A stretch of 42,407 nt of DNA, from positions 1 through 42,407 of IMG/VR virus record IMGVR_UViG_2565956608_000007; one strand, written 5' to 3'. Positions within the stretch are counted from its first letter, which is position 1. Every line of letters begins with the position of its first letter. This stretch comes from a virus (lineage: Duplodnaviria; Heunggongvirae; Uroviricota; Caudoviricetes). The position numbers were made by a program, and so were the translations under genes. This document shows positions 6,958-41,710 of this stretch, in pieces. The notes below the pieces were generated by a model. That model saw only the letters and a program-made list of their open reading frames with translations. It was not told where the DNA came from and searched no databases.

Positions 6958-7315
6958 TTACGGAAAGGTGTCGTCTGAGTTTTGGTTAGACCAGAACGGC
7001 AACAAATGGAAAGTGCCCACGATCAAAGGTCGCCTGAAAATGCGCGTACCCTGCCATCGCGCACTACGCGAATTTGTTCTTTGGCGCGACGGTTTCAAAT
7101 GCCGTCATTGTGGTAGTCAAGACCGCATTAAATTGGTCGCAGATCACATTGTATCGCGACGTAACGGTGGGGCTCACCACCCAGACAACATGCAGTGTTT
7201 GTGTGATTCCTGCAATGCGCGCAAGGCATCCCTGGTTGATGCCAAATTCCAGCCAAGGCCTGATGTAAGTGAGGTTATTTGTTCTGATGGAGGGGTGATT
7301 GATGGCACGCATTAG
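6950..7315 (+). CDS. HNH endonuclease
   Basis: Cys/His motif CRHCG ... DHIVSRRNGGAHHPDNMQCLCDSCNARK; GGAGG ribosome-binding site. Confidence 0.75.
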   Translation: MRDYGKVSSEFWLDQNGNKWKVPTIKGRLKMRVPCHRALREFVLWRDGFKCRHCGSQDRIKLVADHIVSRRNGGAHHPDNMQCLCDSCNARKASLVDAKFQPRPDVSEVICSDGGVIDGTH

Positions 7316-8312
7316 AACAATTAAACCTGAGTTCTGGACTGATGAGAAGATTGTCGAATGCTCATTTGAGGCGCGCCTGATGTTTATCGGAATGTTCAAT
7401 TTTGCCGACGACAAAGGCAATCTGGTGCGCTCCCCGAAGCGTATCAAGATGCAGATTTTCCCTGCGGACATGATCGACTGCGAGCCGTTAATTAAAGAAC
7501 TTAGCCTGGCTGGGTTAATCAGTGAGTATTCAGTGAATGGTGTTGAATATATTCACATTGATGGTTTTTCTAAACACCAGAAAATTAACCGACCATCCGC
7601 AACAACAATACCTACTCCAGAAGAAGTCGCTGATAGCTCACGGAAACCAGCACCTAATTACATGGATGGTTCAGTGAATGATGATGAAAAACAAACATAT
7701 GATTCACATGCAAGCAATGGAGTTAACACTGAGGACTCACTGAGTGCTCACGGCGAACTCACTGACGGAAGGGAAAGGAAGGGAAGGGAAGAGGAAAGGA
7801 ATAAAACTAATTTGTCCGATTCGAATCGGACTGATGGCGATAAACCTGACGAGTCGAAAGGGAAACCTTCACAGGAAAAACCTGATTCAGAATCAGATGA
7901 TGCTGAAGGCCAAGATCCAGTCGATGTCGCTTTCGAAAATATTTTTTGGGGGGCAGGTCTGAGAAAGGATGCCAAGGTCAAGGCTAAGTCAGCGTTCAGG
8001 ACCAAATATCGCGACTGGAAAAAAGCGAACCGAGGTACGCCTGAGAACTTCGCCGTTATGCTGGCTGAAGATATCAGCCTCCGGGTGAAAACACAGCAAA
8101 TGGGGTTCGACAAACTCCTGCCAGCGTCATACCTGAACGGAGAGCGCTGGAACGATGAAAAACCAAATGGAGCTCCTCAGATATCCGCAAGCGCAAACGC
8201 CATCGGTGGGACAGGGGCTTCCTGGTTCGCAAAACCAAGTGACGGTTCGGCTGAGGTATTTATCAGCCAGGCAGCCATTGACCGCATGAAGCGCGGAGCT
8301 AACCGCCCATGA
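7302..8312 (+). CDS. putative replication initiation / replisome organizer protein
   Basis: N-terminus ARIRTIKPEFWTDE resembles conserved phage replication-protein N-domains (recalled, not searched); position upstream of the primase-helicase; acidic low-complexity linker. Confidence 0.5.
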   Translation: MARIRTIKPEFWTDEKIVECSFEARLMFIGMFNFADDKGNLVRSPKRIKMQIFPADMIDCEPLIKELSLAGLISEYSVNGVEYIHIDGFSKHQKINRPSATTIPTPEEVADSSRKPAPNYMDGSVNDDEKQTYDSHASNGVNTEDSLSAHGELTDGRERKGREEERNKTNLSDSNRTDGDKPDESKGKPSQEKPDSESDDAEGQDPVDVAFENIFWGAGLRKDAKVKAKSAFRTKYRDWKKANRGTPENFAVMLAEDISLRVKTQQMGFDKLLPASYLNGERWNDEKPNGAPQISASANAIGGTGASWFAKPSDGSAEVFISQAAIDRMKRGANRP

Positions 8313-10289: not shown

Positions 10290-10601
10290 ATGGATCGCCT
10301 AATTAGAGAAATGTCGTACCTCTTTACCAAGCAGCGTTTTTTGGAGCTTCAGGAAGCGGCCAAAGACATCGCAATCGGTCATAGTGACTTTCCTGAGTGT
10401 TTCGGTCTTATTGCTGACGCCATCGCTGAATTTGTTGAAGACACTCCTGATGATGAGTGGCGAGAGTATGAAAAAATCCTCATGCACTACGTTGCTATGC
10501 GTACTCTGACGCTGTGGGGTAACGGGGATAAAGTTACTGATGTCCAGTGGGCACACCCTGGCTGGTTTGGCACTGCTGAAAAGGGAGAAACCATTCAATG
10601 A
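10290..10601 (+). CDS. hypothetical protein
   Basis: 103-aa ORF, stop overlaps the next start (ATGA). Confidence 0.5.
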   Translation: MDRLIREMSYLFTKQRFLELQEAAKDIAIGHSDFPECFGLIADAIAEFVEDTPDDEWREYEKILMHYVAMRTLTLWGNGDKVTDVQWAHPGWFGTAEKGETIQ

Positions 10602-11380
10602 AACTGGAAGCAGCACTCAAACATTTTAGTCCTCAGGGAATGCATATCAGCGACGATGTAAAGGGAACCTCTCCGGATCGTCTCACCGGCACTGATGTTA
10701 TGGCAGCGATTGGTACCACCAGCAGCCGTGCGCGGTTCGGCCTGGCGGCGTTCTTCGGTAAAGCGGGAATCAGCAAAACGGATGAACAGCTCGCAGTTCA
10801 GGCGCTGGCGCGATATGCGATGGATGTCGCACCGAAGAATGTTCGCAAAGCAGCTGGTGGCCAGTTCGGATGGTGTATGCAGATGTTGGCACAATTTGCC
10901 TTTGCTGATTACTCACGTTCAGCGGCTACCAGCGTGACGTGTCACAGTTGCAGTGGTACCGGGTTTATCTCCAGGAATGAGGATGTGGTTAAACATCCTG
11001 GTATTTTCGACGCCGACGGTGCTGAAGTAGTTGCCCCGAAGATTAAAAATGAGCTGGTGAATAGGGTTTGCGGAACATGCGGAGGAAAGAAAGTGATCCT
11101 TGCCCGGTGCAGGTGTGGCGGTAAAGGCGAAGTGTTGGACCGCAAAGCGACCAAAGACCGCGGCGCACCGGTTTTCAAAACGTGTGAACGTTGCTCTGGT
11201 AATGGCTTCTCTGCTATCTCCTCGGCTACAGTACACCGCGCCATTCTGAAGCGTCTCCCTGACCTCCATCAATCCTCATGGTCACGCAACTGGAAACCCT
11301 TCTATGAAATGCTGGTGGATACTCTGCGCCAGGGGGAGCGTCACGCAGCAGTGGAATTTGAGAAGGCGACAACTTATTAA
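10598..11380 (+). CDS. zinc-finger protein, putative late-gene antiterminator (Q-like)
   Basis: Four CxxCxGxG motifs; located between replication and lysis modules and followed by a promoter plus terminator pair. Confidence 0.4.
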   Translation: MKLEAALKHFSPQGMHISDDVKGTSPDRLTGTDVMAAIGTTSSRARFGLAAFFGKAGISKTDEQLAVQALARYAMDVAPKNVRKAAGGQFGWCMQMLAQFAFADYSRSAATSVTCHSCSGTGFISRNEDVVKHPGIFDADGAEVVAPKIKNELVNRVCGTCGGKKVILARCRCGGKGEVLDRKATKDRGAPVFKTCERCSGNGFSAISSATVHRAILKRLPDLHQSSWSRNWKPFYEMLVDTLRQGERHAAVEFEKATTY

Positions 11381-11519: not shown

Positions 11520-11674
11520 GTACCCGCATTTCCCGCGCACCGCCCGCGCATTCAATACGTCGAACCAATCCATTTGAAATGAGCCTTTGAGGAAGTCAGT
11601 TAGCGCTGGCGAGCCTCGACGGGCTGGTTTCCTGTGCGGCAAAGGTTCATTTCAAAGTAAGGCATACGCATATC

Positions 11675-12160
11675 ATGAGCATCACGCAAGAACGGCTGAA
11701 AGAGGTTCTGAAGTACGACCCTTTGACTGGTTTATTTGTTTGGATCAAGCGAACAAACTCTCGGTCTACGCCAGGCAATATAGCCGGGAACGCAGATACG
11801 TACGGCTATATCCAGATAATGATCGATAAGAAATTAATCTTCGCTCATCGGTTGGCTTTTTTATACATGGATGGTGCGCTGCCGCCAGCTGATAAGTGTG
11901 TCGATCATATCAATGGCAATCCCAAAGATAACCGATGGGACAACTTACGTATCGTTACCCAGTTTGTTAATCAGCAGAACAGGCATAAGGCCAGAAAAGG
12001 TGCGAAATCTGGGCTAATTGGAGCAAACTGGTGCAAGGATCGTGGCCTGTGGCGTTCTGCGATTAGCGTCAACGGGAAACGCAAAGATCTCGGTAGTTTC
12101 CAAACTGCGGAGTTGGCTCACGAGGCTTACATGAAAGCTAAAGCTGAAATGTGTCGTTAA
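11675..12160 (+). CDS. HNH homing-type endonuclease
   Basis: DHINGNPKDNRWDNLR HNH motif. Confidence 0.7.
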   Translation: MSITQERLKEVLKYDPLTGLFVWIKRTNSRSTPGNIAGNADTYGYIQIMIDKKLIFAHRLAFLYMDGALPPADKCVDHINGNPKDNRWDNLRIVTQFVNQQNRHKARKGAKSGLIGANWCKDRGLWRSAISVNGKRKDLGSFQTAELAHEAYMKAKAEMCR

Positions 12161-12465: not shown

Positions 12466-12682
12466 GTTTCCCCTCCTTCTGAGAGAACTCACGGCAATGA
12501 AGTATTGACCGGCGGAATGATTTCGGCGTAATTTGTTTGTGTGGTGAATCCTTTCTAAGCGAAAGGGCGTTCCAGTCAACTGCTATCTGCAGGTATGCGC
12601 GCGGCTTTGCTGACTGGGGTAGAGTCACCGGGAGGCACCCGGCACCATGACAACAACAATACAAGTTTCAAATTCCTTGAGA

Positions 12683-12710
12683 GCCTGCCATAAAACGCAG
12701 GCCTTTTTTT
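12683..12710 (+). terminator. Rho-independent terminator
   Basis: GCCTGC-loop-GCAGGC followed by TTTTTTT. Confidence 0.55.
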
Positions 12711-12860
12711 ATGGTTTTGCAAACTGCTGCTACGCTTTGAGTTGTGGGAAGTAACTGAATGCCCGGTGGTTCTCCTGGACCGATAGTGAATCAGCCGATA
12801 CAGCTTCACCTCTGAGCATAAGTCTTACTCACACCTACCTTACAAATAGTCAACTCATTA

Positions 12861-12939: not shown

Positions 12940-13329
12940 ATGTCCGATCCATTAACCGGCACTGGTGCAGTTCTCGGCGGAGGCCTGCTGGGTTCAGTCC
13001 TGTATGGTGTCTTTACTCATACAGATTTCGGCGTGGTGTTTGGAGCGTTTGGTGGTGCGGTGTTTTACGTCGCGACAGCTGCAAACCTTACGCGTGCTCG
13101 CCTGGCTGCATATTTCCTTACATCATTCATTGTTGGAGTGCTTGGCGCCGGGTTTGTTGGTTCATGGCTAAATGCTGCCTCGAGTTATGAAAAACCACTG
13201 GATGCACTCGGTGCAGTGATTTTGTCTGCACTGTGTATAAAAATCCTAACTTTTCTTAATAACCAGGACCTGAACACCCTGTTCGGTTTTTTCTCACGGT
13301 TACGCGGAGGAGGGGGAAATGGTAATTGA
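12940..13329 (+). CDS. holin
   Basis: 129-aa hydrophobic protein with multiple predicted transmembrane segments at the head of the lysis cassette; GAGGGGG ribosome-binding site. Confidence 0.65.
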   Translation: MSDPLTGTGAVLGGGLLGSVLYGVFTHTDFGVVFGAFGGAVFYVATAANLTRARLAAYFLTSFIVGVLGAGFVGSWLNAASSYEKPLDALGAVILSALCIKILTFLNNQDLNTLFGFFSRLRGGGGNGN

Positions 13330-13597
13330 CCCGTCAGCTGTCTTTAACGCGTTTATCTGCTCGGTGATCGTCGTCGTTCTGATGTTCTACCAGCGCCATG
13401 GTGCCCGGCACCGTCCTTTTATCTCAATCCTGGCGTATATAACCATCCTGGTTTACGCAGTAATCCCATGGCAATTCATCTTCGGCCTCTATCGTGACTC
13501 CAGTTGGCTGGTGGTGATGTCGAACCTCCTGATATGCGCAGCTGTTATGAAGGTCCGGGGAAATCTGGCACGTCTGGTTGATCTTCTGAGGCACTAA
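13319..13597 (+). CDS. second holin-like membrane protein
   Basis: 92-aa hydrophobic protein between holin and endolysin. Confidence 0.5.
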   Translation: MVIDPSAVFNAFICSVIVVVLMFYQRHGARHRPFISILAYITILVYAVIPWQFIFGLYRDSSWLVVMSNLLICAAVMKVRGNLARLVDLLRH

Positions 13598-14139
13598 TGA
13601 CAAAAGACGAAATTTTTGACGCCATTCTTGGCAAAGAGGGCGGGTACGTTAATCACCCCGACGACAAAGGCGGCCCAACAAACTGGGGGATCACGCAAGC
13701 GGTAGCTCGCGCCCACGGTTATAACGGTGATATGCGCAACCTTACCCGCCAGCAGGCGCTGGATATCCTGACTGCTGACTACTGGACAGGGCCACGCTTC
13801 GACCTTGTTTCTGAGGTATCACCAGCCATCGCTGCCGAACTCTGCGACACAGGCGTAAACATGGGCCCATCAGTTCAGACCAAATGGTTTCAGCGCTGGC
13901 TGAATGTGTTCAACATTCAAGGCACGCTCTATCCCGATCTGATTGCTGATGGTTTTATCGGTCCGCGAACTATCAGCGCGTTAAAAAGCTATCTTTCCCG
14001 GCGCGGAAAAGAGGGTGAGTTGGTTATGCTTCGGGCCCTGAATTGTAGCCAGGGTCAGCGTTATCTTGAGCTGGCAGAACAGCGCAGCGCGAACGAGACG
14101 TTTGTTTATGGCTGGGTAAAGGAGCGGGTGGTTATATGA
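13597..14139 (+). CDS. endolysin, GH108-type muramidase with peptidoglycan-binding domain
   Basis: N-terminal motif EGGYVNHPDDKGGPTNWGIT characteristic of GH108 lysins; start overlaps upstream stop (TAATG). Confidence 0.85.
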   Translation: MTKDEIFDAILGKEGGYVNHPDDKGGPTNWGITQAVARAHGYNGDMRNLTRQQALDILTADYWTGPRFDLVSEVSPAIAAELCDTGVNMGPSVQTKWFQRWLNVFNIQGTLYPDLIADGFIGPRTISALKSYLSRRGKEGELVMLRALNCSQGQRYLELAEQRSANETFVYGWVKERVVI

Positions 14140-14405
14140 CGCTTGAGTTGATTACCGGATTCGTTATCGCGGTGTTTGCTGCTATTGCCGCCGCGTTTGG
14201 CCTGGGTCATTCACGCGGAACCAGCAAAGCGGAAGCGAAATCAGAACTGCAGCGCACCGAAGATAATGCAGCGGCCACGGTCGCAGCAGCAGATCGCCGG
14301 GTAGAGACAACGAAAGAGGCCAGCAATGTACAGCAGACCGTTAACCATATGCCTGGCGATGATGTTGATCGTGAGCTGCGCACAAACTGGACCCGTAAAG
14401 GTTGA
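14136..14405 (+). CDS. i-spanin (Rz-like)
   Basis: N-terminal transmembrane helix then charged periplasmic region; ATGA overlap with endolysin stop. Confidence 0.65.
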   Translation: MTLELITGFVIAVFAAIAAAFGLGHSRGTSKAEAKSELQRTEDNAAATVAAADRRVETTKEASNVQQTVNHMPGDDVDRELRTNWTRKG

Positions 14406-14556
14406 GGTTGTAGACACGGCTTGCGACTGGGTTAAACCCATCTACGGAACGGATCACGACTGGGATGTGCTGGACCGCCAGACGAAGAAAGACATCCTGG
14501 CGCATAACAAAACGTGGCAGGTGAACTGCCAAAAGGAGAAAGTCGATTTGAAGTAG
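14326..14556 (+). CDS. o-spanin (Rz1-like lipoprotein)
   Basis: Signal peptide with lipobox-like IVSC; begins inside the i-spanin gene in another frame and extends past it. Confidence 0.6.
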   Translation: MYSRPLTICLAMMLIVSCAQTGPVKVEVVDTACDWVKPIYGTDHDWDVLDRQTKKDILAHNKTWQVNCQKEKVDLK

Positions 14557-15234
14557 TAAAGCGGATAGACCGCCGCCGAAAGGTAATGCAGCAGTCATGA
14601 TGCTGCCCCGAGTCGCGTAATGGCGAGCAGGTATAGCAGACAGTTGTGAGGGTAAGTAAGGGAACATGCTCCGGTAAAGCAGCACGAACGCCATACGCGC
14701 ACCGGTTATCAGCGGCTAATAAGCGACAGAGACTCAAGGGCATGAGCGTGGCCACTTCGGGTAGTGGCAGCCATTACAAAGCTCACCTGCTGGTGGGCTT
14801 GATAATGGTTATAAACATAAGCAGTTTAATCAATCATATGATCATCTTACGCAATTGGATTTCTTCCTGCCCGTTGAGTTGGGCGTACTCCACTAATTGC
14901 TTAATAAGCGATTCTTTGTCATTAGACATCAAGGAAGAAACGTAAAGACCAGTTGTCCATTCAAAAACGCTCACTAAGGATAAGGGCGATTTTCTTGAGT
15001 ACTGATAATTTATTGAGAAGTTATTGCAGATTCTTTTCTTTTCCATGGGGTAAATTTGTACTTAATGCAAATTATCGGCATTTATAATGCTGTAATGGTT
15101 TGAGATAAATGAGTACTTCACTTTGGGTAAAAGATACTTTAGCACCGCTAAAAATAGTAGGATTAATCTTAGATTGTTGTTGTTTTTAGCAAAATATGAA
15201 TAATAAATTCAACTAAACACAACGATAACAACCG

Positions 15235-15684
15235 ATGAAAATTCAATCTATTACAATCGCTTTTCTGGTGGCGATATCGTCACCCTCATACTCAGCCTTT
15301 CAGGAAAGGGAATACAATACCTGGTATCAGAAAGATGCAGTGCTTTACGACATTACGCAGACCTCAGAGGGATTGCCTGTCATGATAAGCATCTCTCAAC
15401 CCGGGAGGGGAGCAGCAAATATGCTGGTGTCCTATATGTCCGATGGCAGTTGTGGAGATAAGAAGGAGTTGCTTAATGTGAATGGGAAGGATGTTCCTGC
15501 AACTTACAGGTGTGTATCGGTCGGGGCAAACAGGATTGAGCACTTTGCAGTTAATGATGCCGAAAAGGTCAATGAGATGGTTAACCACCTCAAGTCAGAT
15601 TTCACTTTGCTGCTTCAGAACGATATCAAAGTCTGGGCTGCGAACATAAAGACGCCGAAGTATGGCATAGCACCAAGATTTTAA
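15235..15684 (+). CDS. secreted protein of unknown function (cargo)
   Basis: 149-aa ORF with N-terminal signal peptide MKIQSITIAFLVAISSPSYSA; sits in a visibly AT-rich segment and is followed by a terminator. Confidence 0.6.
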   Translation: MKIQSITIAFLVAISSPSYSAFQEREYNTWYQKDAVLYDITQTSEGLPVMISISQPGRGAANMLVSYMSDGSCGDKKELLNVNGKDVPATYRCVSVGANRIEHFAVNDAEKVNEMVNHLKSDFTLLLQNDIKVWAANIKTPKYGIAPRF

Positions 15685-15698
15685 ATCGCTATATCTAA

Positions 15699-15718
15699 CC
15701 GCCTGAAGGCGGTTTTTT
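15699..15718 (+). terminator. Rho-independent terminator
   Basis: CCGCC-TGAA-GGCGG followed by TTTTTT. Confidence 0.6.
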
Positions 15719-15736
15719 AATGGCAATAACATTGGT

Positions 15737-15782
15737 TATCCCCTGAAAGGGATAAAGCACTGAATATCCCTTTCAGGGGATA
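15737..15782. repeat. perfect 18-bp inverted repeat (TATCCCCTGAAAGGGATA ... TATCCCTTTCAGGGGATA) with 10-bp spacer
   Basis: Second arm is the exact reverse complement of the first; each arm is itself a near-palindrome. Confidence 0.7.
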
Positions 15783-15787
15783 AATCG

Positions 15788-15811
15788 GCCTCGCAATAGC
15801 GGGGCTTTTTT
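15788..15811 (+). terminator. Rho-independent terminator
   Basis: GCCTCGC-AATA-GCGGGGC followed by TTTTTT. Confidence 0.55.
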
Positions 15812-15849
15812 CTGCGCCTCGTACGCGCATTTCAGAGAGTCTTTCAGTA

Positions 15850-15917
15850 GTGAGCCTGAGGAGCATCGTTAAAGGTGGCGACCTCTCTCGGGCGGTGCTC
15901 CTGTACGACAGGCTCAC
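15850..15917 (+). promoter_or_regulatory. long interrupted inverted repeat in the 5' leader of the cargo operon
   Basis: GTGAGCCTG/AGGAGCA pairs with TGCTCCT/CAGGCTCAC around a ~28-nt loop; ends 5 nt before the AAGGAAA ribosome-binding site. Confidence 0.45.
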
Positions 15918-15934
15918 ACCTTAAAGGAAACGCA

Positions 15935-16363
15935 ATGAAGAAATTTTTCACTGATGCGATAGCAAAAATAACTTTTTACGCGCTGCTCGCCGCTTTGCTA
16001 TTTGCTGTTACTACAGGGGCCGGTTCTTTATTGAGAGTAGTTGCCGCCGCCTACTGGGTGATCGTATTGCTTGGCGCGGTAGTTGGTTTGTTAGCTCTCA
16101 TTATTACGTTTGGTGTCGAGTATTCAAAGGATGATAAGTCCAGGCGGGAGGGTATTGAATACCTTGAACGCTTTGCTAAGCGCAAGAACGCAATAGCAAG
16201 AGTATGGGGATGGTTCTGCCTGGTGCTGGGTGCTTCCATGCTTGCATACGGTGGGTGGGTGTTTACAGCGGTAGCCTACGTAATAGCGTCATTGTTTGTG
16301 CGCCTGTGCTGTTCGCTTGCTCGTGATAAGGTCGAGAAACTAACCAAAAAAGAGGTGGCTTGA
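15935..16363 (+). CDS. integral membrane protein of unknown function
   Basis: 142-aa ORF from ATG 15935, about four hydrophobic segments. Confidence 0.6.
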   Translation: MKKFFTDAIAKITFYALLAALLFAVTTGAGSLLRVVAAAYWVIVLLGAVVGLLALIITFGVEYSKDDKSRREGIEYLERFAKRKNAIARVWGWFCLVLGASMLAYGGWVFTAVAYVIASLFVRLCCSLARDKVEKLTKKEVA

Positions 16364-16548
16364 TGGCTCGCTTAAATGTCGAAGTAATCCCGCCGAGTAA
16401 TGAGCAAATAAACCAGGTGATTGAAGAAATAAGCCGGAAATACGCACGTAAGCCACTTACTCCGCAGATCGAAGGCGAGCTCCAGCGTGAAGCTGCTCGA
16501 CTGGTGCGCCGGTTTACAAAAACGAAAGTTACTTTAGTGAGAGATTAA
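16360..16548 (+). CDS. small hypothetical protein
   Basis: 62-aa ORF, start overlaps upstream stop. Confidence 0.5.
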   Translation: MMARLNVEVIPPSNEQINQVIEEISRKYARKPLTPQIEGELQREAARLVRRFTKTKVTLVRD

Positions 16549-16552
16549 CTCG

Positions 16553-16957
16553 ATGAAAAAAATAACTGTCACGGTATCGGGTATTTCTCCATTTGTAATG
16601 GAAGTGGACTATCGCCCGGAAAAAAGTGAATTAGGTAATATTCTTCGAGCTCTTTCATGCGCAGCTGAAATTGTTTCAAGAGAGGCGGTGAAAATCGGCG
16701 AGGAAATACCCGTGGATATACTTCGTGAAACTGAATCATCCTTTCATTTAACAGATTGTGAACCTGCCGACACCGGGAAAACCGTTTATGAGGCAGTTTT
16801 TGAACTGAATGATGGTAAAAAAATCCTCGGCTATTCGGATCAAGACCAACCGAAGGCGAACGGAGAATATTACCACTGTGCAGCTACCAAAGACATGAAA
16901 GGGCGAGTTATCGTAGTGGCTAAATATGTCACTAATTTCCGTTTTACTCCGCTTTAA
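16553..16957 (+). CDS. hypothetical protein
   Basis: 134-aa ORF 5 nt after the previous stop; same operon. Confidence 0.6.
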   Translation: MKKITVTVSGISPFVMEVDYRPEKSELGNILRALSCAAEIVSREAVKIGEEIPVDILRETESSFHLTDCEPADTGKTVYEAVFELNDGKKILGYSDQDQPKANGEYYHCAATKDMKGRVIVVAKYVTNFRFTPL

Positions 16958-17024
16958 AGCTGATATTACAGGAGCCCTTCACTGAGGGGCTTCGATAATG
17001 TTTTTTGAGTGAGGATTGTTCAGA

Positions 17025-18029
17025 ATGGCTTCGATAAAAGAATCCACTGATGCCAATGGACAATCAAAATATTACGTCCACTGGAAGGATGAAAAATCCG
17101 GTCATGGACGCCGCCGCATTTTTAAGAATATTGATGATGCCGCACATCTTTTCTGGCAAAAACAGAATATCGAGCTGGATTGTCGAACTGCCAGCTGGAC
17201 CGGAATAGACCATTCCTGGACTTTCCGAAAGTTAATTCTGTTTTATCTGGGGTATCAGGCCGGCAAGCTGGAAAAAAATATCATACGGCTGTCGTCATAT
17301 ACGAAATGCCGTCACGATCTTCTCGCGGTAGACGGGCCGATACTGGAAAAAAATATTCTCCATATCAGCCATCGTGATATCGGTGATTCGGTTCGCACCG
17401 GCTGCCATCGCTGGATTCGTTCGGCTTTCTTCCTGCTGGTGGAAAAACGACTCATCGCTTTTAACCCTGTTGACCGTCCCGCGCGCCGGAAGCGTCGACC
17501 CATCACCATACCGCCATCATCATCGGTCAGGGAGCTACTGAATAACGCGCCAGTTCGTGAGCGTATCGCGTGCTGGCTCGGGATTTGTGGCCTGCGAATC
17601 GGTGAGGCTCTGGCGGTTACGTATAACGACGTGTCAGCCGACTGGATCGACATCCGGGGGCATGTTGTTGACGGCGTTATACATGAGGGGCTGAAAAGAG
17701 GAGTGGAGCGCCGGGTACGGATGCCGCGTGAGCTTTTCGCGTTGCTGGATAAAAGTAAACTCGGTACCTCTGAGCCTCTTATCTGCAACCAGTTTACCGG
17801 CACATGCCTCGCTACCAGCTACGGCACTCAGGGCGTTCTCGTCAGAACCCTGAACGACTATGGCATTAAGCGATTCCATCATCTTCGCCACTTTGCTGTA
17901 TCTCGCCTGGCAAACAAAGGCGTCGATATCCTGAAGGTTTCCCGACTTATTGGGCATTCGAACATCAAAACCACAATGGACGTTTACGGTCACCTGTTCG
18001 GTGAAGTGGTGGAGATGGATTTGGACTGA
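17025..18029 (+). CDS. second tyrosine recombinase / integrase embedded in the prophage
   Basis: C-terminal HHLRHFAVSRLANKGVDILKVSRLIGHSNIKTTMDVYGHL (HxxR ... Y signature); GAGGA ribosome-binding site. Confidence 0.85.
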   Translation: MASIKESTDANGQSKYYVHWKDEKSGHGRRRIFKNIDDAAHLFWQKQNIELDCRTASWTGIDHSWTFRKLILFYLGYQAGKLEKNIIRLSSYTKCRHDLLAVDGPILEKNILHISHRDIGDSVRTGCHRWIRSAFFLLVEKRLIAFNPVDRPARRKRRPITIPPSSSVRELLNNAPVRERIACWLGICGLRIGEALAVTYNDVSADWIDIRGHVVDGVIHEGLKRGVERRVRMPRELFALLDKSKLGTSEPLICNQFTGTCLATSYGTQGVLVRTLNDYGIKRFHHLRHFAVSRLANKGVDILKVSRLIGHSNIKTTMDVYGHLFGEVVEMDLD

Positions 18030-18033
18030 GTTA

Positions 18034-18067
18034 TCCACATAGTGGAAATATTAGGGCGATCCACTAT
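18034..18067. repeat. TCCAC-containing near-palindrome (TCCACataGTGGA) and extra TCCAC half-site just 3' of the second recombinase
   Basis: Read directly; starts 5 bp after the recombinase stop. Confidence 0.4.
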
Positions 18068-18121
18068 CTCCCCATTCTGCGCGGCCTCCGGTCATTAAAT
18101 CGCAGTTTTCCCGAAAAAAAG

Positions 18122-18215
18122 GATATGCCGCATTTTTACCCCCTCTGATATGCCGCACTTGGCACCAGAGAGGACGCGGCCTGCACGCCAGAATTTACCG
18201 CGTGATACGCCGCAC
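18122..18215. repeat. three direct repeats of GATAYGCCGCA upstream of terS
   Basis: Copies at 18122, 18147 and 18204, spaced 25 and 57 bp. Confidence 0.6.
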
Positions 18216-18273
18216 CCGGATCGGAGAAATTGGATTTTGAACAAAAAATAATCACATTGACTTAGGCGGAAGT

Positions 18274-18876
18274 ATGGCTCCTAAAAAAAGCTTCAGAAAA
18301 GCCTACGTCGGTATCGTTATGGACATGGCATTAGCCCGTAGCAAAATCAGCAATCGGATGGTTGCTCAGCGCTTAGGTGTGGACGAGACGACGATCCGTC
18401 GCTGGCGTAAAGAGAATATCGAGTTTGAGCGCGCTTTCACTGAGGCTCGCGAAGCTCTCAGAGAGAAAATAAACCGCGTCGCCGGTAAGAGCCTGGACGT
18501 TCGTAAACGGAAGGTTGTCACCACATCGCCGGATGGTGTGAAAACCACGATTGAAGATGTGCTGCCCACGCACAACGATATTGCTGTTTTCTCAAAGGTG
18601 CTCGGTCTTGGTACCAGCGTCTATAGCGAGGAAGAACGTCAGCGTGATGTGCTTCGCGAGGTGATGAAACATAAGGTAGCCGGGAAATACTCCGCGCTGG
18701 AGGCGGCGCAGCTGCTTGAGGCTGAGGGAGTAAAAGTTCCGGCAACCCTGCTTATGGAGCTGGGAGCACCGAAAATTTTCGAACCGTTCAACAATATGGA
18801 CGAGGCAGCCAAAGCCGACGCGGCGAACCTGACCCCGCAGGAAGCAGCCGATATCTACAAAAAAATCCTGGGCTGA
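18274..18876 (+). CDS. terminase small subunit (HTH-containing)
   Basis: 200-aa ORF immediately upstream of terL with N-terminal HTH (RMVAQRLGVDETTIRRWRKEN). Confidence 0.55.
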   Translation: MAPKKSFRKAYVGIVMDMALARSKISNRMVAQRLGVDETTIRRWRKENIEFERAFTEAREALREKINRVAGKSLDVRKRKVVTTSPDGVKTTIEDVLPTHNDIAVFSKVLGLGTSVYSEEERQRDVLREVMKHKVAGKYSALEAAQLLEAEGVKVPATLLMELGAPKIFEPFNNMDEAAKADAANLTPQEAADIYKKILG

Positions 18877-19022
18877 AAATTGCAAAAACAGGCGTTTCGA
18901 ACCGTAAAAACGCTATGCACTTTTTGACCCGTTTTATGCACGTTTTATTCATCCCGATTTGACCACTTTTCTGTTCAAAACAGAGGCTTCACGCCGTTTG
19001 CGTGATGGGTGCTGTTGCGCCA

Positions 19023-19073
19023 GTGCGGGTAACGACCATTATGTTAAATCGGGGCGTTTTTGAGGAATTTTTC
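19023..19073 (+). promoter_or_regulatory. conserved ~50-bp element, copy 1 (GTGCGGGTAA-N6-TTATGTTAAAT ...) upstream of terL
   Basis: Near-identical to 22918-22968; contains ATG of a short MLN... uORF. Confidence 0.5.
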
Positions 19074-20691
19074 TGTGCCGATCCCGTTCCCCTTTGACTT
19101 CCGCAAACCGGACTATACCGCCGTGTTTGAGTGGAGAATGGAGAGGCTGGAGCGGATCAGGAAAGCGCCTGAAATGCTTCCGGCACTCCGTGAGTTTTAC
19201 CGCACTAACCCGGCTCAGTTCATCATCGACTGGGGTATGACGACGGACCCGCGTAACCTCGATTATGGCCTGCCTGCCACCATCCCGTTTTTGCTGTTCC
19301 CCCGCCAGGAGGAATGGATTAACTGGATCATGGACAGGCGCGCAAGTCTTGAGCATGGACTGACAGAAAAAAGCCGCGAAATGGGGCTGAGCTGGACCTC
19401 TATCGGTCTGGCCTGTTCGCTTTGCCTGTTCAACAAAGAAATGGTGATCGGGTTCGGTTCCCGTAAAGAGGAATATGTCGATAGCACCGGCGACCCGAAA
19501 GCGCTGTTCTGGAAGGCACGGAAGTTTGTCGAGCTGCTGCCGGTTGAGTTTCGCGGTTCATGGAGTGACAAAAAACATGCCCCTTACATGCGCGTGGAGT
19601 TCCCGGAAACGGGCGCGGTCATTAAGGGAGAGGCTGGCGATAACATTGGCCGTGGTGACCGTACCACGCTTTATTTCGTGGATGAGTCGGCATTTCTCAA
19701 ACGGCCATTACTCATCGATGCTGCGCTCTCTCAGACGACCCGCTGCCGTATAGACCTCTCATCCGTCAACGGCATGAATAACCCGTTTGCCCGTAAGCGC
19801 CACAGCGGAAATATCCCGGTGTTTACGTTCCACTGGCGCAGCGACCCGCGCAAGGATGATGAGTGGTACCGCAACGAATGTCTGAAAATTGATGATCCGA
19901 TTATCGTTGCTCAGGAACTGGACCTGAACTACAGCGCATCCACAGAGGGGATCCTCATTCCTTCTGAATGGGTGCAGGCTGCCGTCGATGCGCATATCAA
20001 ACTGGGTATTCAGCCCAGTGGCCAGCGCCTCGGCGCAATGGATATCGCAGACGAAGGGAAAGACAAAAACGGCTTTTCTTGCCGCTATGGCTTCCTTCTG
20101 CAGAACGTTCACGAATGGTCTGGCATTGGCAGCGACATCTACGCTTCTGTCGTTAAATCGTTTGGGTACTGTGACGATTACGGTCTGGATGAGTTCCGTT
20201 TCGATGAGGACGGTCTGGGTGCTGGTGCGCGTGGCGATGCTCGCGTGATAAACGAGCTCAGGCAGGCTGAAGGCCGGGGAACAATCACAGCTACGCCTTT
20301 CCGTGGTAGCGGTAGCGTATTCGATCCGGAAGATGAAGCCGTCCCTGGTGATAACGGTAAAGCGGCGCGCCTGAATAAAGACTTCTTCGCGAACGCGAAA
20401 GCACAGAGCTGGTGGCATCTTCGCAAGCTGTTTCGAAACACCTTCCGCGCGCTGAACGGGATGGACTACAACCCCGACGAAATCATTTCGATAAGCAGCG
20501 AGATAGAAAATATTGACCGCCTGCTGATGGAGCTTTCACAGCCTACATGGTCGAAAAACGCCGTCGGTAAAATCCTCGTGGATAAACAGCCGGAAGGTAC
20601 AAAATCGCCGAACCTCGCCGACGCCGTGATGATTAACTACGCGCCGATGGATTCCTCTCTTGATAATTGGGCCAAACTGGCCGGAGCGTGA
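19060..20691 (+). CDS. terminase large subunit
   Basis: 543-aa ORF with ATPase Walker B-like YFVDE and nuclease region; TTG start from the ORF track, true start uncertain. Confidence 0.85.
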
Positions 20692-39624: not shown

Positions 39625-40668
39625 TCATATTAAAGCTTTTCGTAAAAGCGTCTTCCCAATTAAAACACCTTTTCGCTCTACAGTTTTATGCGCAAAATAA
39701 CAAACTATAAATAACAATGTTAATATTTGAATGTTGCTGTTGATATATGGGATTTGTAATTTTGAAACCACTAGTGACAAAGTATACCAAATCCAGTTAT
39801 GGAACAAGTATACAGCATAAGTCATTTCAGACAGTAAATTGCATGCTTTGGATTCAATGAATTTATCTCTAAACAACCACGAAACAAGGAAAATAATAAC
39901 TCCTGTAAATGCGTAGTTGTACTGGCCCCAGAATGGATTTATTTTCTCAATGAGAGATAAATGCAGATAGAACATAATTACGATGGATGCTAAAGCAATA
40001 ACCCGATTAACTAACTTATGCTCTACAAGATACACTACTACACCGATAAACAAAAATGGCGTATACAATGTAAAGTAAGCATTATGAAAATCATTAGCCA
40101 CAGGGAAAGGGTTAATGCTGGATATAAAAAACGATACAACAAGAAGGAGAACAGTCAAAACGTTTCCTTTGTTTATTATACCAGCTTTTTTAACTAATCC
40201 CATAAACACGTAGAACATCATTTCTATTCTTAGTGTCCATTCTACGCCAGCTAATGAAAGTGGAGTGTTAAAGAAATCACCTATGAGCAAAAGTCTTGGG
40301 ATTAGTATAGTTAGAGGTGGAACACCAGCACCGTTATAATACTGAACTAACATTTCTGCAATAACTGCAAAAATGTATAAAGGATATATTCTAAAAATCC
40401 TTTTTAAATAAAATTCAAAAGTTGCTTCTTTTTGTAAAACGTGGGTTATGATATATCCTGAAACAAGAAAGAAGATTACAACCCCCATAGCCCCACCGAA
40501 ACTGGCATCGGCAAGTAGACCGTAAAATGATCTAAGTGTTACGTGGTTACTTGGATCGCTCGCCCACGAAGCTAAATCTTTGTTGAACTTGTGGCCTAAC
40601 ACCACAAGAGAGAATGCAAAGATACGCATGTAATCTAAAAAAAGAATTCTACGATTGTTCATTTTCAT
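39625..40668 (-). CDS. acyltransferase family 3 membrane protein (OafA/Oac-like O-antigen acetyltransferase)
   Basis: About 347-aa polytopic membrane protein with acyltransferase-3-type N-terminus (RILFLDYMRIFAFSLVVLGH); markedly AT-rich; located between tail genes and attR. Confidence 0.75.
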   Translation of the reverse strand: MKMNNRRILFLDYMRIFAFSLVVLGHKFNKDLASWASDPSNHVTLRSFYGLLADASFGGAMGVVIFFLVSGYIITHVLQKEATFEFYLKRIFRIYPLYIFAVIAEMLVQYYNGAGVPPLTILIPRLLLIGDFFNTPLSLAGVEWTLRIEMMFYVFMGLVKKAGIINKGNVLTVLLLVVSFFISSINPFPVANDFHNAYFTLYTPFLFIGVVVYLVEHKLVNRVIALASIVIMFYLHLSLIEKINPFWGQYNYAFTGVIIFLVSWLFRDKFIESKACNLLSEMTYAVYLFHNWIWYTLSLVVSKLQIPYINSNIQILTLLFIVCYFAHKTVERKGVLIGKTLLRKALI

Positions 40669-40809
40669 CAAAATCTTATTGTTGATGAGGCTATTTTATA
40701 GCATGAACAGCGAAATTCATAACAGGTTGGTGGTTGGGGTGGTGAAAAATCTCATCATGGAAGAAAAATCTGGCTGTCAGCGTTTATTAATGCTGGCAGC
40801 CAGCACATT

Positions 40810-41347: not shown

Positions 41348-41710
41348 TGGTGGAGCTGGCGGGAGTTGAACCCGCGTCCGAAATTCCTACATCCTCGGTA
41401 CTACATGCTTAGTCAGTCTTTACATTCGCTTGCCAGCTGCGGACGGACACGCCACTAACAAACTAGCCTGATTAAGTTTTAACGCTTCAACCCCAGGCAG
41501 GGCTTCCACGCGATCTCTTTTGGGTTTGACCTCTCTTGATCCCCGTCCTAAGAGCGGAGGCTAGGGAGAGAGGGCTCTAAGCAGGTTATTAAGCTGCTAA
41601 AGCGTAGTTTTCGTCGTTTGCGACTATTTTTTGCGGCTTTTTACGAGGCCAACCGCCCCTCGGCATGCACCTTGGGTTTCGCAAATCCCGTCGAATCCAG
41701 AATCAGCCCC
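41348..41710 (-). ncRNA. ssrA: tmRNA (transfer-messenger RNA, SsrA)
   Basis: Minus-strand sequence begins GGGGCTGATTCTGGATTCGACGGG and ends ...GGTTCAACTCCCGCCAGCTCCACCA; 363 nt; directly downstream of smpB. Confidence 0.95.
41355..41384. repeat. attR core inside ssrA (GCTGGCGGGAGTTGAACCCGCGTCCGAAAT)
   Basis: 29/30 identical to 1663-1692. Confidence 0.65.

Follow-up and report, generated by a model that had tools for sequence, protein, structure and literature searches.

What are three short genes doing between the lysis and the packaging genes of a prophage, and do they form a system of their own? The question is raised by a stretch of DNA of 42,407 nucleotides (nt), hereafter the window, which spans positions 1 to 42,407 of the IMG/VR virus record IMGVR_UViG_2565956608_000007 (Caudoviricetes) and is a lambdoid prophage. 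Its + strand carries three open reading frames (ORFs): ORF1 (15935-16363, 142 amino acids (aa)), with an AAGGA Shine-Dalgarno sequence 6 nt 5' of its start, ORF2 (16363-16548, 61 aa), whose ATG overlaps the stop codon of ORF1 (TGATG), and ORF3 (16553-16957, 134 aa), which starts 4 nt past the stop codon of ORF2. An initial annotation had described these genes as a tightly coupled cargo operon and as a candidate for an undescribed accessory system, for example superinfection exclusion or abortive infection. The coupling and the lengths of ORF1 and ORF3 stand as described; ORF2 comprises 61 rather than 62 aa, as judged from the starts of its homologues. All three genes are under purifying selection (ratio of nonsynonymous to synonymous substitution rates, dN/dS, below 0.4 against close homologues), indicating that they are genuine genes.

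The block is mostly an ordinary lysis-accessory region, consisting of a LysA-type gene and uncharacterised late genes, and the RNA elements that flank it are the more promising lead. On balance, and with considerable room for doubt, the block appears to be the post-lysis, pre-packaging accessory slot of a Q-dependent lambdoid late operon and not a dedicated three-component system.

ORF1 and the P2 LysA Family

Judged by its sequence, ORF1 is homologous over its full length to LysA of phage P2, which affects the timing of lysis, is not essential and is a putative antiholin. ORF1 matches the protein family phrog_162 over its full length (residues 1-135 of 141, E = 1.2e-11), and P2 LysA itself matches the same family (E = 1.8e-67). 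Direct comparison by hhalign of a profile of 17 ORF1 relatives with P2 LysA gave 96.4% and an E-value of 1.4e-9 across residues 1-137 of both. Furthermore, precomputed Pfam annotation records PF28015 (LysA) for the identical gene in contigs L138 and L139 and for all close homologues, and the NCBIfam model NF038378 reaches 39.1 bits, just below its cutoff of 40. The Pfam copy that was scanned does not hold the PF28015 model and leaves P2 LysA itself unmatched, which accounts for the empty Pfam scan of ORF1.

The features typical of this family, full-length similarity, a size of about 140 aa with four transmembrane segments, and a location in or near the lysis cassette of the late operon, are all found in ORF1. 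The protein is basic and hydrophobic, with about four transmembrane segments (hydrophobic stretches at approximately 8-33, 30-64, 86-104 and 103-130) and a charged loop at 60-88, consistent with the polytopic membrane protein that had been predicted as the first gene. Its dN/dS against close homologues is 0.16-0.28, and in related phages the gene starts 70-135 nt past the spanin genes. The P2 genome record describes LysA as "nonessential; affects timing of lysis", P2 LysA has been described as a separately encoded antiholin with four transmembrane segments (PMC3091744), and the ORF1 homologue of a Hafnia phage is annotated as "putative antiholin". Genes of the ORF1 type appear to be dispensable, as Yersinia phage YP3 and many relatives lack one. 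By homology with P2 LysA, ORF1 is most likely a modulator of the timing of holin triggering that would delay lysis.

An alternative start of ORF1 at GTG 15875, giving a protein of 162 aa, was rejected, since the homologues share an MKKF start and a conserved Shine-Dalgarno sequence, and since the in-frame upstream stretch is kept as RNA structure and has no conserved start codon. The family phrog_162 carries the label "endolysin", yet it holds the P2 LysA family of membrane proteins; because P2 LysA itself matches it, the label is probably a naming artefact that stems from confusion over the name LysA. Genes of the ORF1 type, which are "hypothetical" in sequence records and "endolysin" in PHROGs, should thus be re-annotated as LysA-type lysis-timing proteins.

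Independent Assortment of the Slot Genes

The position of the block had been recognised as an accessory slot between lysis and packaging genes, and this description is accurate: holins, an endolysin and spanin-like ORFs lie upstream, a recombinase, a small-terminase-like (TerS-like) gene and the large terminase gene (TerL) lie downstream, and the slot is hypervariable across related phages. The combinations of the three genes were tabulated over 79 distinct slot sequences with complete flanks. ORF2 stands alone in about 33 of them and ORF1 alone in 26, ORF1-ORF2 is found in nine and ORF3 alone in six, all three genes occur together in two (plus the window type), and ORF1-ORF3 and ORF2-ORF3 are each found once. 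All seven possible combinations are therefore seen, indicating that the three genes are not an obligate system. The exact arrangement of the window occurs in seven contigs, with three different lysis cassettes in front of it. In the isolated phage YP3, which belongs to the same lineage, the spanin gene leads directly to a recombinase that is 94.6% identical to that of the window, and none of the three genes is present. The view of the block as one three-gene system is thus contradicted both by the slot table and by YP3, and the recombinase is likewise found with or without each of the three genes.

At the level of DNA, Klebsiella phage GZ7 and E. coli prophages match the flanks of the block but not the block itself. 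A search of the three genes against 50,697 phage records, including a distant mode, returned no match, and matches to 5,426 complete E. coli genomes were limited to the flanks. The presence or absence of genes between syntenic neighbours and a deviant base composition, both of which are expected of a moron, are seen here. An own promoter and terminator were not found, the promoter by a consensus scan only; terminators lie upstream of the block and none lies after it.

Conserved RNA Elements Bracket the Slot

A structured RNA leader precedes ORF1 at 15812-15937 (+ strand) and folds into two hairpins, a small one termed P1 (15813-15828) and a long one (15840-15927). The latter is composed of an outer helix (GUGAGCCUG/CAGGCUCAC) and a covarying inner helix; in its basal helix, UCUUU (15840-15844) pairs with AAAGG of the ORF1 Shine-Dalgarno sequence (15923-15927), and U.G wobble is the commonest pair at its foot. 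Folding of 15685-15950 gave a z-score of -7.8 relative to shuffled sequences. In an alignment of 23 homologous leader sequences (A4), 97.7% of the cells of the small and long hairpins are paired, and compensatory cells number 30, as compared with 8.5 +/- 2.8 in shuffles (0/500) and 1-4 in slid controls. The highly structured leader that had been noted upstream of the block is thereby substantiated by both folding and covariation. A covariance model (R1) scored 144.8 bits on the + strand and 18.8 bits on the - strand, a bias indicating that the leader acts as RNA; it may control translation or processing. Comparison of the leader and tail region (15600-17100) with Rfam 15 gave matches at chance level only, the best reaching 28 bits against a gathering score of 82, and across the whole window Rfam 15 recognised only a transfer-messenger RNA (tmRNA) and STnc100. 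In the literature, neither an account of such a leader or tail element nor one of LysA beyond P2-like phages was found; several hits concerned the word "lysate" or the mycobacteriophage endolysin that is also named LysA.

The leader is not tied to any particular gene. The 5' flank at 15788-15937 is 71-100% identical ahead of LysA genes whose proteins are down to 36% identical, and the leader DNA itself retains 87% identity where the LysA proteins encoded behind it share only 36% of their residues and the synonymous substitutions (dS) are saturated. At least 120 viral contigs contain its core motif, and the genes that follow it belong to no fewer than 11 unrelated families, among them a GT2-like protein, HNH endonucleases, a protein with the C-module of ORF3, and LysA. 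A second, divergent copy is found in the window itself at 11533-11668 (+ strand; R1 38.2 bits, E = 2e-7, full model length), just past a promoter-like site and a terminator downstream of the Q gene. The gene behind this copy (11675-12160) has HNH_3 and AP2 matches and is homing-endonuclease-like, indicating that the same RNA element heads two different accessory genes in one phage.

At the other end of the slot, a tail hairpin (16964-17000, + strand) has a basal helix (UAUUA/UAAUG) and, beyond an internal loop, an upper helix that covaries. This hairpin lies directly 3' of the last slot gene in more than 100 loci, whatever that gene is, and its invariant flanks, (C/U)AUUA...UAAUG, pair with each other. 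In the tail alignment (A6), 97.4% of the cells are paired and 29 compensatory cells are seen, as compared with 9.6 +/- 2.2 in shuffles (0/500), and a U.G wobble is kept in 26 of 28 sequences. Many copies have no U-run, so the tail does not qualify as an ordinary terminator. The window contains two instances of the pattern ATTACAR-N15-30-GATAATG, with 0.03 expected. A second tail-type hairpin (ATTACAAAGCTCACCTGCTGGTGGGCTTGATAATG) lies at 14773-14807 (+ strand), about 220 nt past the o-spanin-like ORF and before an AT-rich insert. The DNA conservation with other phages begins at 15788, and the similarity to L137, a phage with a different lysis cassette, begins exactly there; this joint indicates that the flanks of the slot also act as recombination joints.

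ORF2 and ORF3

ORF2 matches phrog_12811, a family with no assigned function (E = 2e-29), and its relatives are encoded in 88 viral contigs. Its dN/dS against close homologues is 0-0.09, indicating strong purifying selection. All homologues begin with MARLN or MPRLN, which places the start at ATG 16363; a reading of 62 aa from an upstream TTG was rejected, as homologues do not start there. The protein is basic (isoelectric point, pI, 10.1) and soluble, and is modelled by AlphaFold2 (AF2) with high confidence (mean predicted local distance difference test, pLDDT, 95.3) as a beta-alpha-alpha-beta arrangement with a strand at 3-9, helices at 13-27 and 34-51, and a strand at 53-59. A fold search with this model gave no informative match, and its layout does not conform to a ribbon-helix-helix protein of the Arc/MetJ/CopG type, an assignment that was rejected. 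In most phages ORF2 is the gene right behind the o-spanin gene; in about 60 loci, its start overlaps the end of an o-spanin gene with a lipobox (LSGC), and no LysA gene precedes it. In L026 (5853-6028), a natural deletion has removed the 3' half of the leader and all but the last codons of LysA while leaving ORF2 intact, indicating that LysA can be lost with retention of ORF2. Based on its position, ORF2 would be a late-expressed accessory factor of lysis or of the late operon, and it might perhaps act as a cytoplasmic co-regulator, in the manner of T4 RIII assisting RI.

ORF3 is acidic (pI 5.2), soluble and rare. It is made up of two modules, N (1-58) and C (72-134), each of which is also found alone or fused to other partners: in L193 and P0055 the C-module follows an unrelated N-terminus, in P0011 an unrelated C-terminus follows the N-module, and L095 (5800-6180) carries a gene of 66 aa that encodes only the N-module and lies upstream of ORF2, in reversed order. 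Only 12 clusters were found in an index of 5.8 billion proteins, and when 1.84 billion proteins were searched exhaustively with a profile, the number of representative clusters was only 15; among species-representative genomes, ORF3 occurs in Kosakonia oryziphila only. Searches of Pfam, PHROGs, NCBIfam, PADLOC and PDB returned no match for ORF3, PHROG and Pfam scans of its distant homologues gave nothing informative, and the AF2 model, built from 10 sequences, is unusable (pLDDT 48.7). The dN/dS against close homologues is 0.23-0.38. The GC content at third codon positions (GC3) is 0.34, as compared with 0.55-0.63 in the flanking genes, and ORF1 and ORF2 are intermediate (0.44-0.48). The low GC3, the rarity of the protein and the shuffling of its modules among other slot proteins suggest that ORF3 is a compositionally foreign, later insert into the slot.

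None of the three proteins had been assignable to a known family in the initial annotation, which holds for ORF2 and ORF3, neither of which matches a functionally described family, but not for ORF1. The remote homology check proposed at the time, by hidden Markov model profiles and structure prediction, thus leads to LysA, a routine lysis-cassette accessory, for ORF1, to a confident model with no fold match for ORF2, and to nothing informative for ORF3.

Expression and Interpretation of the Block

A simple consensus scan of the + strand from 14400 to 18300 revealed no site resembling a sigma-70 promoter. Immediately 5' of the block there are two intrinsic terminators (15697-15714 and 15787-15806), and relatives that do not have an inserted gene for a protein of 149 aa upstream of the block carry a conserved terminator directly past the spanin stop codon. 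Taken together, the lack of a promoter-like site and the two terminators point to transcription by Q-modified polymerase during lytic growth. The three genes are thus probably expressed late only, in need of the Q antiterminator, which is a poor fit with an exclusion function expressed in the lysogen.

As a mechanism, Q-modified RNA polymerase would read through the two upstream terminators, such that all three genes would be transcribed then and only then. The leader RNA would sequester the Shine-Dalgarno sequence of whichever gene stands first in the slot. In the window, this first gene would supply a LysA-family inner-membrane protein that delays holin triggering, whereas ORF2 would ride at the 3' end of the lysis cassette, translationally coupled to LysA or to the o-spanin gene, and ORF3 would have been dropped into the same slot as a rare foreign two-module protein. 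The tail hairpin would close the slot, and leader and hairpin, rather than the genes, would be its conserved parts, doubling as joints for the exchange of cargo by homologous recombination.

Several points weigh against this account. An antiholin would be expected to be co-inherited with one type of holin, yet LysA homologues co-occur with at least four unrelated holin families (PF05106, PF04971, PF16931 + PF05449, and P2 Y), which is hard to reconcile with a holin-specific antiholin role. ORF1 is separated from the lysis cassette of the window by about 1.4 kb that contains the inserted gene for the 149-aa secreted protein, and the antiholin role of P2 LysA is itself based on a timing phenotype and not on a demonstrated interaction. 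No functionally characterised protein is homologous to ORF2 or ORF3, whose assignment to a lysis or late function derives from position. The coupling of ORF2 and ORF3 recurs in the divergent phage L146, in which homologues of ORF2 and ORF3 (the latter 55% identical) form a translationally coupled pair in front of a Terminase_2 TerS gene, with no recombinase, and the two genes may thus be functionally linked. The consensus scan could miss a weak or non-sigma-70 promoter, and the proposed effect on lysis is derived from sequence.

A bolder proposal, which we regard as possible but unlikely, is that the leader (15812-15937) and the tail (16964-17000) are two undescribed classes of cis-acting RNA that define an exchangeable lambdoid "late-expression cassette". 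In such a cassette, the leader would gate translation of the cargo through Shine-Dalgarno pairing or would direct processing, the tail would end or stabilise the message, both would serve as joints, ORF2 would be a new cytoplasmic lysis-timing cofactor, and ORF3 would be a new late effector against the host or against competitors.

The notion from which the question arose, that the three genes are an undescribed defence, superinfection-exclusion or abortive-infection system built around a membrane protein and expressed in the lysogen, is improbable. It draws on the propensity of the slot to take up accessory cargo, the same leader being followed by at least 11 unrelated families, on ORF2 and ORF3, which have no known function, on the foreign composition of ORF3, and on the fact that small membrane proteins are common as exclusion factors. 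Nevertheless, PADLOC-DB 2.0 contains no family that matches ORF1, ORF2, ORF3, the recombinase or the 149-aa protein at E <= 1, ORF1 is accounted for as a LysA homologue, and the genes assort independently in all seven combinations. Furthermore, the absence of a promoter-like site and the upstream terminators speak against expression in the lysogen, and in other phages these very genes lie within the late operon, right after the spanins. The block should therefore not be counted as a candidate defence system.

Two further explanations look to the genes downstream. We give little credence to the idea that ORF2 and/or ORF3 serve the downstream module, as a directionality or DNA-binding cofactor of the recombinase or as a small-terminase helper. 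ORF3 does lie 58-67 nt 5' of the recombinase in at least eight distinct loci, and ORF2 is basic and is always the last gene ahead of the packaging module, yet the recombinase occurs without ORF3 in L010-L013 and L018-L025 and without all three genes in YP3, and ORF3 homologues occur without the recombinase in L146. ORF3 was rejected as a recombinase partner on these counter-examples. ORF2, in turn, stands ahead of at least four different pre-TerL modules (recombinase and 200-aa protein; PhageMetallopep and DUF2280; Terminase_2; phages with a TerL that is only 34% identical), and its model has neither a ribbon-helix-helix nor a helix-turn-helix (HTH) fold. It is extremely improbable that the block consists of integron-like cassettes, in which leader and tail would be folded recombination sites through which the adjacent tyrosine recombinase captures cargo. 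It is true that variable cargo lies between the two elements, that both form imperfect hairpins in which some bases are conserved and the upper stem covaries, and that the recombinase adjoining the tail has weak similarity to integron integrases. This similarity amounts to 35.9 bits against a cutoff of 265 for TIGR02249, the integron-integrase model, and neither element shares sequence with attC; the base pairing between leader and Shine-Dalgarno sequence suits a role as RNA, as do the conserved U.G wobbles. The explanation was rejected on distribution, as most leader and tail loci have no recombinase (e.g., GZ7, E. coli TC24, L007, L050 and L146), so that linkage to an IntI-type integrase is not seen.

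With the late-operon slot as the favoured interpretation, its flanks and its smallest gene merit most attention. Leader and tail are widespread, supported by covariation and absent from Rfam, and they bracket a slot that holds at least 11 unrelated families. Understanding them would explain how late accessory genes are expressed and exchanged in lambdoid phages, and would provide a sequence handle for finding such cargo. ORF2 combines a dN/dS of at most 0.09 with a confident fold that has no match; it is found at the end of the lysis cassette in many enterobacterial phages, and genetic tests of a role in lysis timing would be inexpensive.

Genomic Setting

In order, the window carries an integrase gene at 1815-2987, the Q antiterminator at 10598-11380 (PF03589), holins at 12940-13597 (PF16931 + PF05449), and a GH108 endolysin at 13597-14139. 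Two spanin-like ORFs (14136-14405 and 14326-14556) are recognised by position and lipobox, and a family search gave no match for either. Positions 13553-19957 of the window are 100% identical to contig L139 of assembly GCA_000488755.1. The host gene csiD (1-978) lies at the left end and adjoins the integrase. The Rfam match to the small RNA STnc100 (12512-12714, + strand, 55.7 bits) lies just 5' of the holin genes, and a complete tmRNA gene (41348-41710, - strand) is found near the right end, adjoining an acyltransferase gene (39625-40671, PF01757).

Between the lysis cassette and the leader, the region at 14750-15784 consists of an AT-rich stretch (about 14750-15350, GC 0.32-0.40), the gene for the 149-aa signal-peptide protein (15235-15684; phrog_30865, a family with no assigned function), and its own intrinsic terminator (15697-15714, from a terminator scan). 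It also carries a perfect 19-bp inverted repeat (15736-15754/15765-15783), and is probably a true moron. The intrinsic terminator that follows (15787-15811, + strand), found in the same scan and consisting of a hairpin and a T-run, forms the 5' edge of the conserved slot boundary.

Downstream and outside the three-gene block, the tyrosine recombinase (17025-18029, + strand, 334 aa; PF00589, E = 2e-15) is read from ATG 17025, following the calls in related loci. From the ORF3 stop codon to this ATG, 67 nt were measured, in agreement with the 67 bp given originally. An ORF at 7299-8312 has the same length as a TTG-start reading of the recombinase, but is not a recombinase. The recombinase and the 200-aa HTH TerS-like protein (18274-18876) form one module (17025-18876), which alternates with PhageMetallopep and a DUF2280 TerS or with a Terminase_2 TerS (L007, L050 and L146). 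The large terminase downstream of these alternating modules, TerL at 19060-20691 in the window, is the same (80-100% identical). It is odd that a recombinase should occupy the position of a packaging accessory gene.

Comparison with Known Systems

The closest counterpart of ORF1 is P2 LysA. The two proteins are alike in size (142 and 141 aa), they align end to end at the profile level, and they share four hydrophobic segments, a charged central loop and a C-terminal GW(V/I)FTA...SLF.R motif; in addition, both genes lie in the late operon downstream of holin and endolysin genes. They differ in that identity is only about 26%, and in that ORF1 lies past the spanin genes, whereas the P2 gene lies between the endolysin and the spanins. 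Unlike P2 LysA, ORF1 resides in a Q-dependent lambdoid genome and belongs to a family found with at least four unrelated holin families, and a conserved structured leader, which P2 does not have, precedes it. Small, non-essential proteins linked to lysis genes that tune holin triggering include T4 RI/RIII and P1 LydB, of which RIII and LydB are soluble and cytoplasmic. ORF2 would resemble them in being soluble and cytoplasmic, a functional analogy only, as it has no sequence or fold similarity to these proteins.

The polycistronic messages of phages contain hairpins that are processed by RNase III, such as the T7 R sites, the lambda N leader and sib. Leader and tail resemble these hairpins in being intergenic, about 40-90 nt in length and strand-specific, and in their conserved structure, in which an internal loop separates a lower from an upper stem; this likeness, too, is one of functional analogy only, as the two elements have no sequence relationship to these hairpins and no match in Rfam, and the leader, in addition, pairs with a Shine-Dalgarno sequence. 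Finally, classic morons in the sense of Hendrix and Casjens come with a promoter and a terminator of their own, and expression from the prophage is common among them. The slot genes are similar to lambdoid morons in that they are present or absent at a fixed position among close relatives, in that the composition of ORF3 is deviant, and in that the slot accepts many unrelated genes. In contrast to classic morons, the slot has no promoter-like site, and it is bounded by a terminator and a Shine-Dalgarno-sequestering leader on its 5' side and by a non-terminator hairpin on its 3' side.

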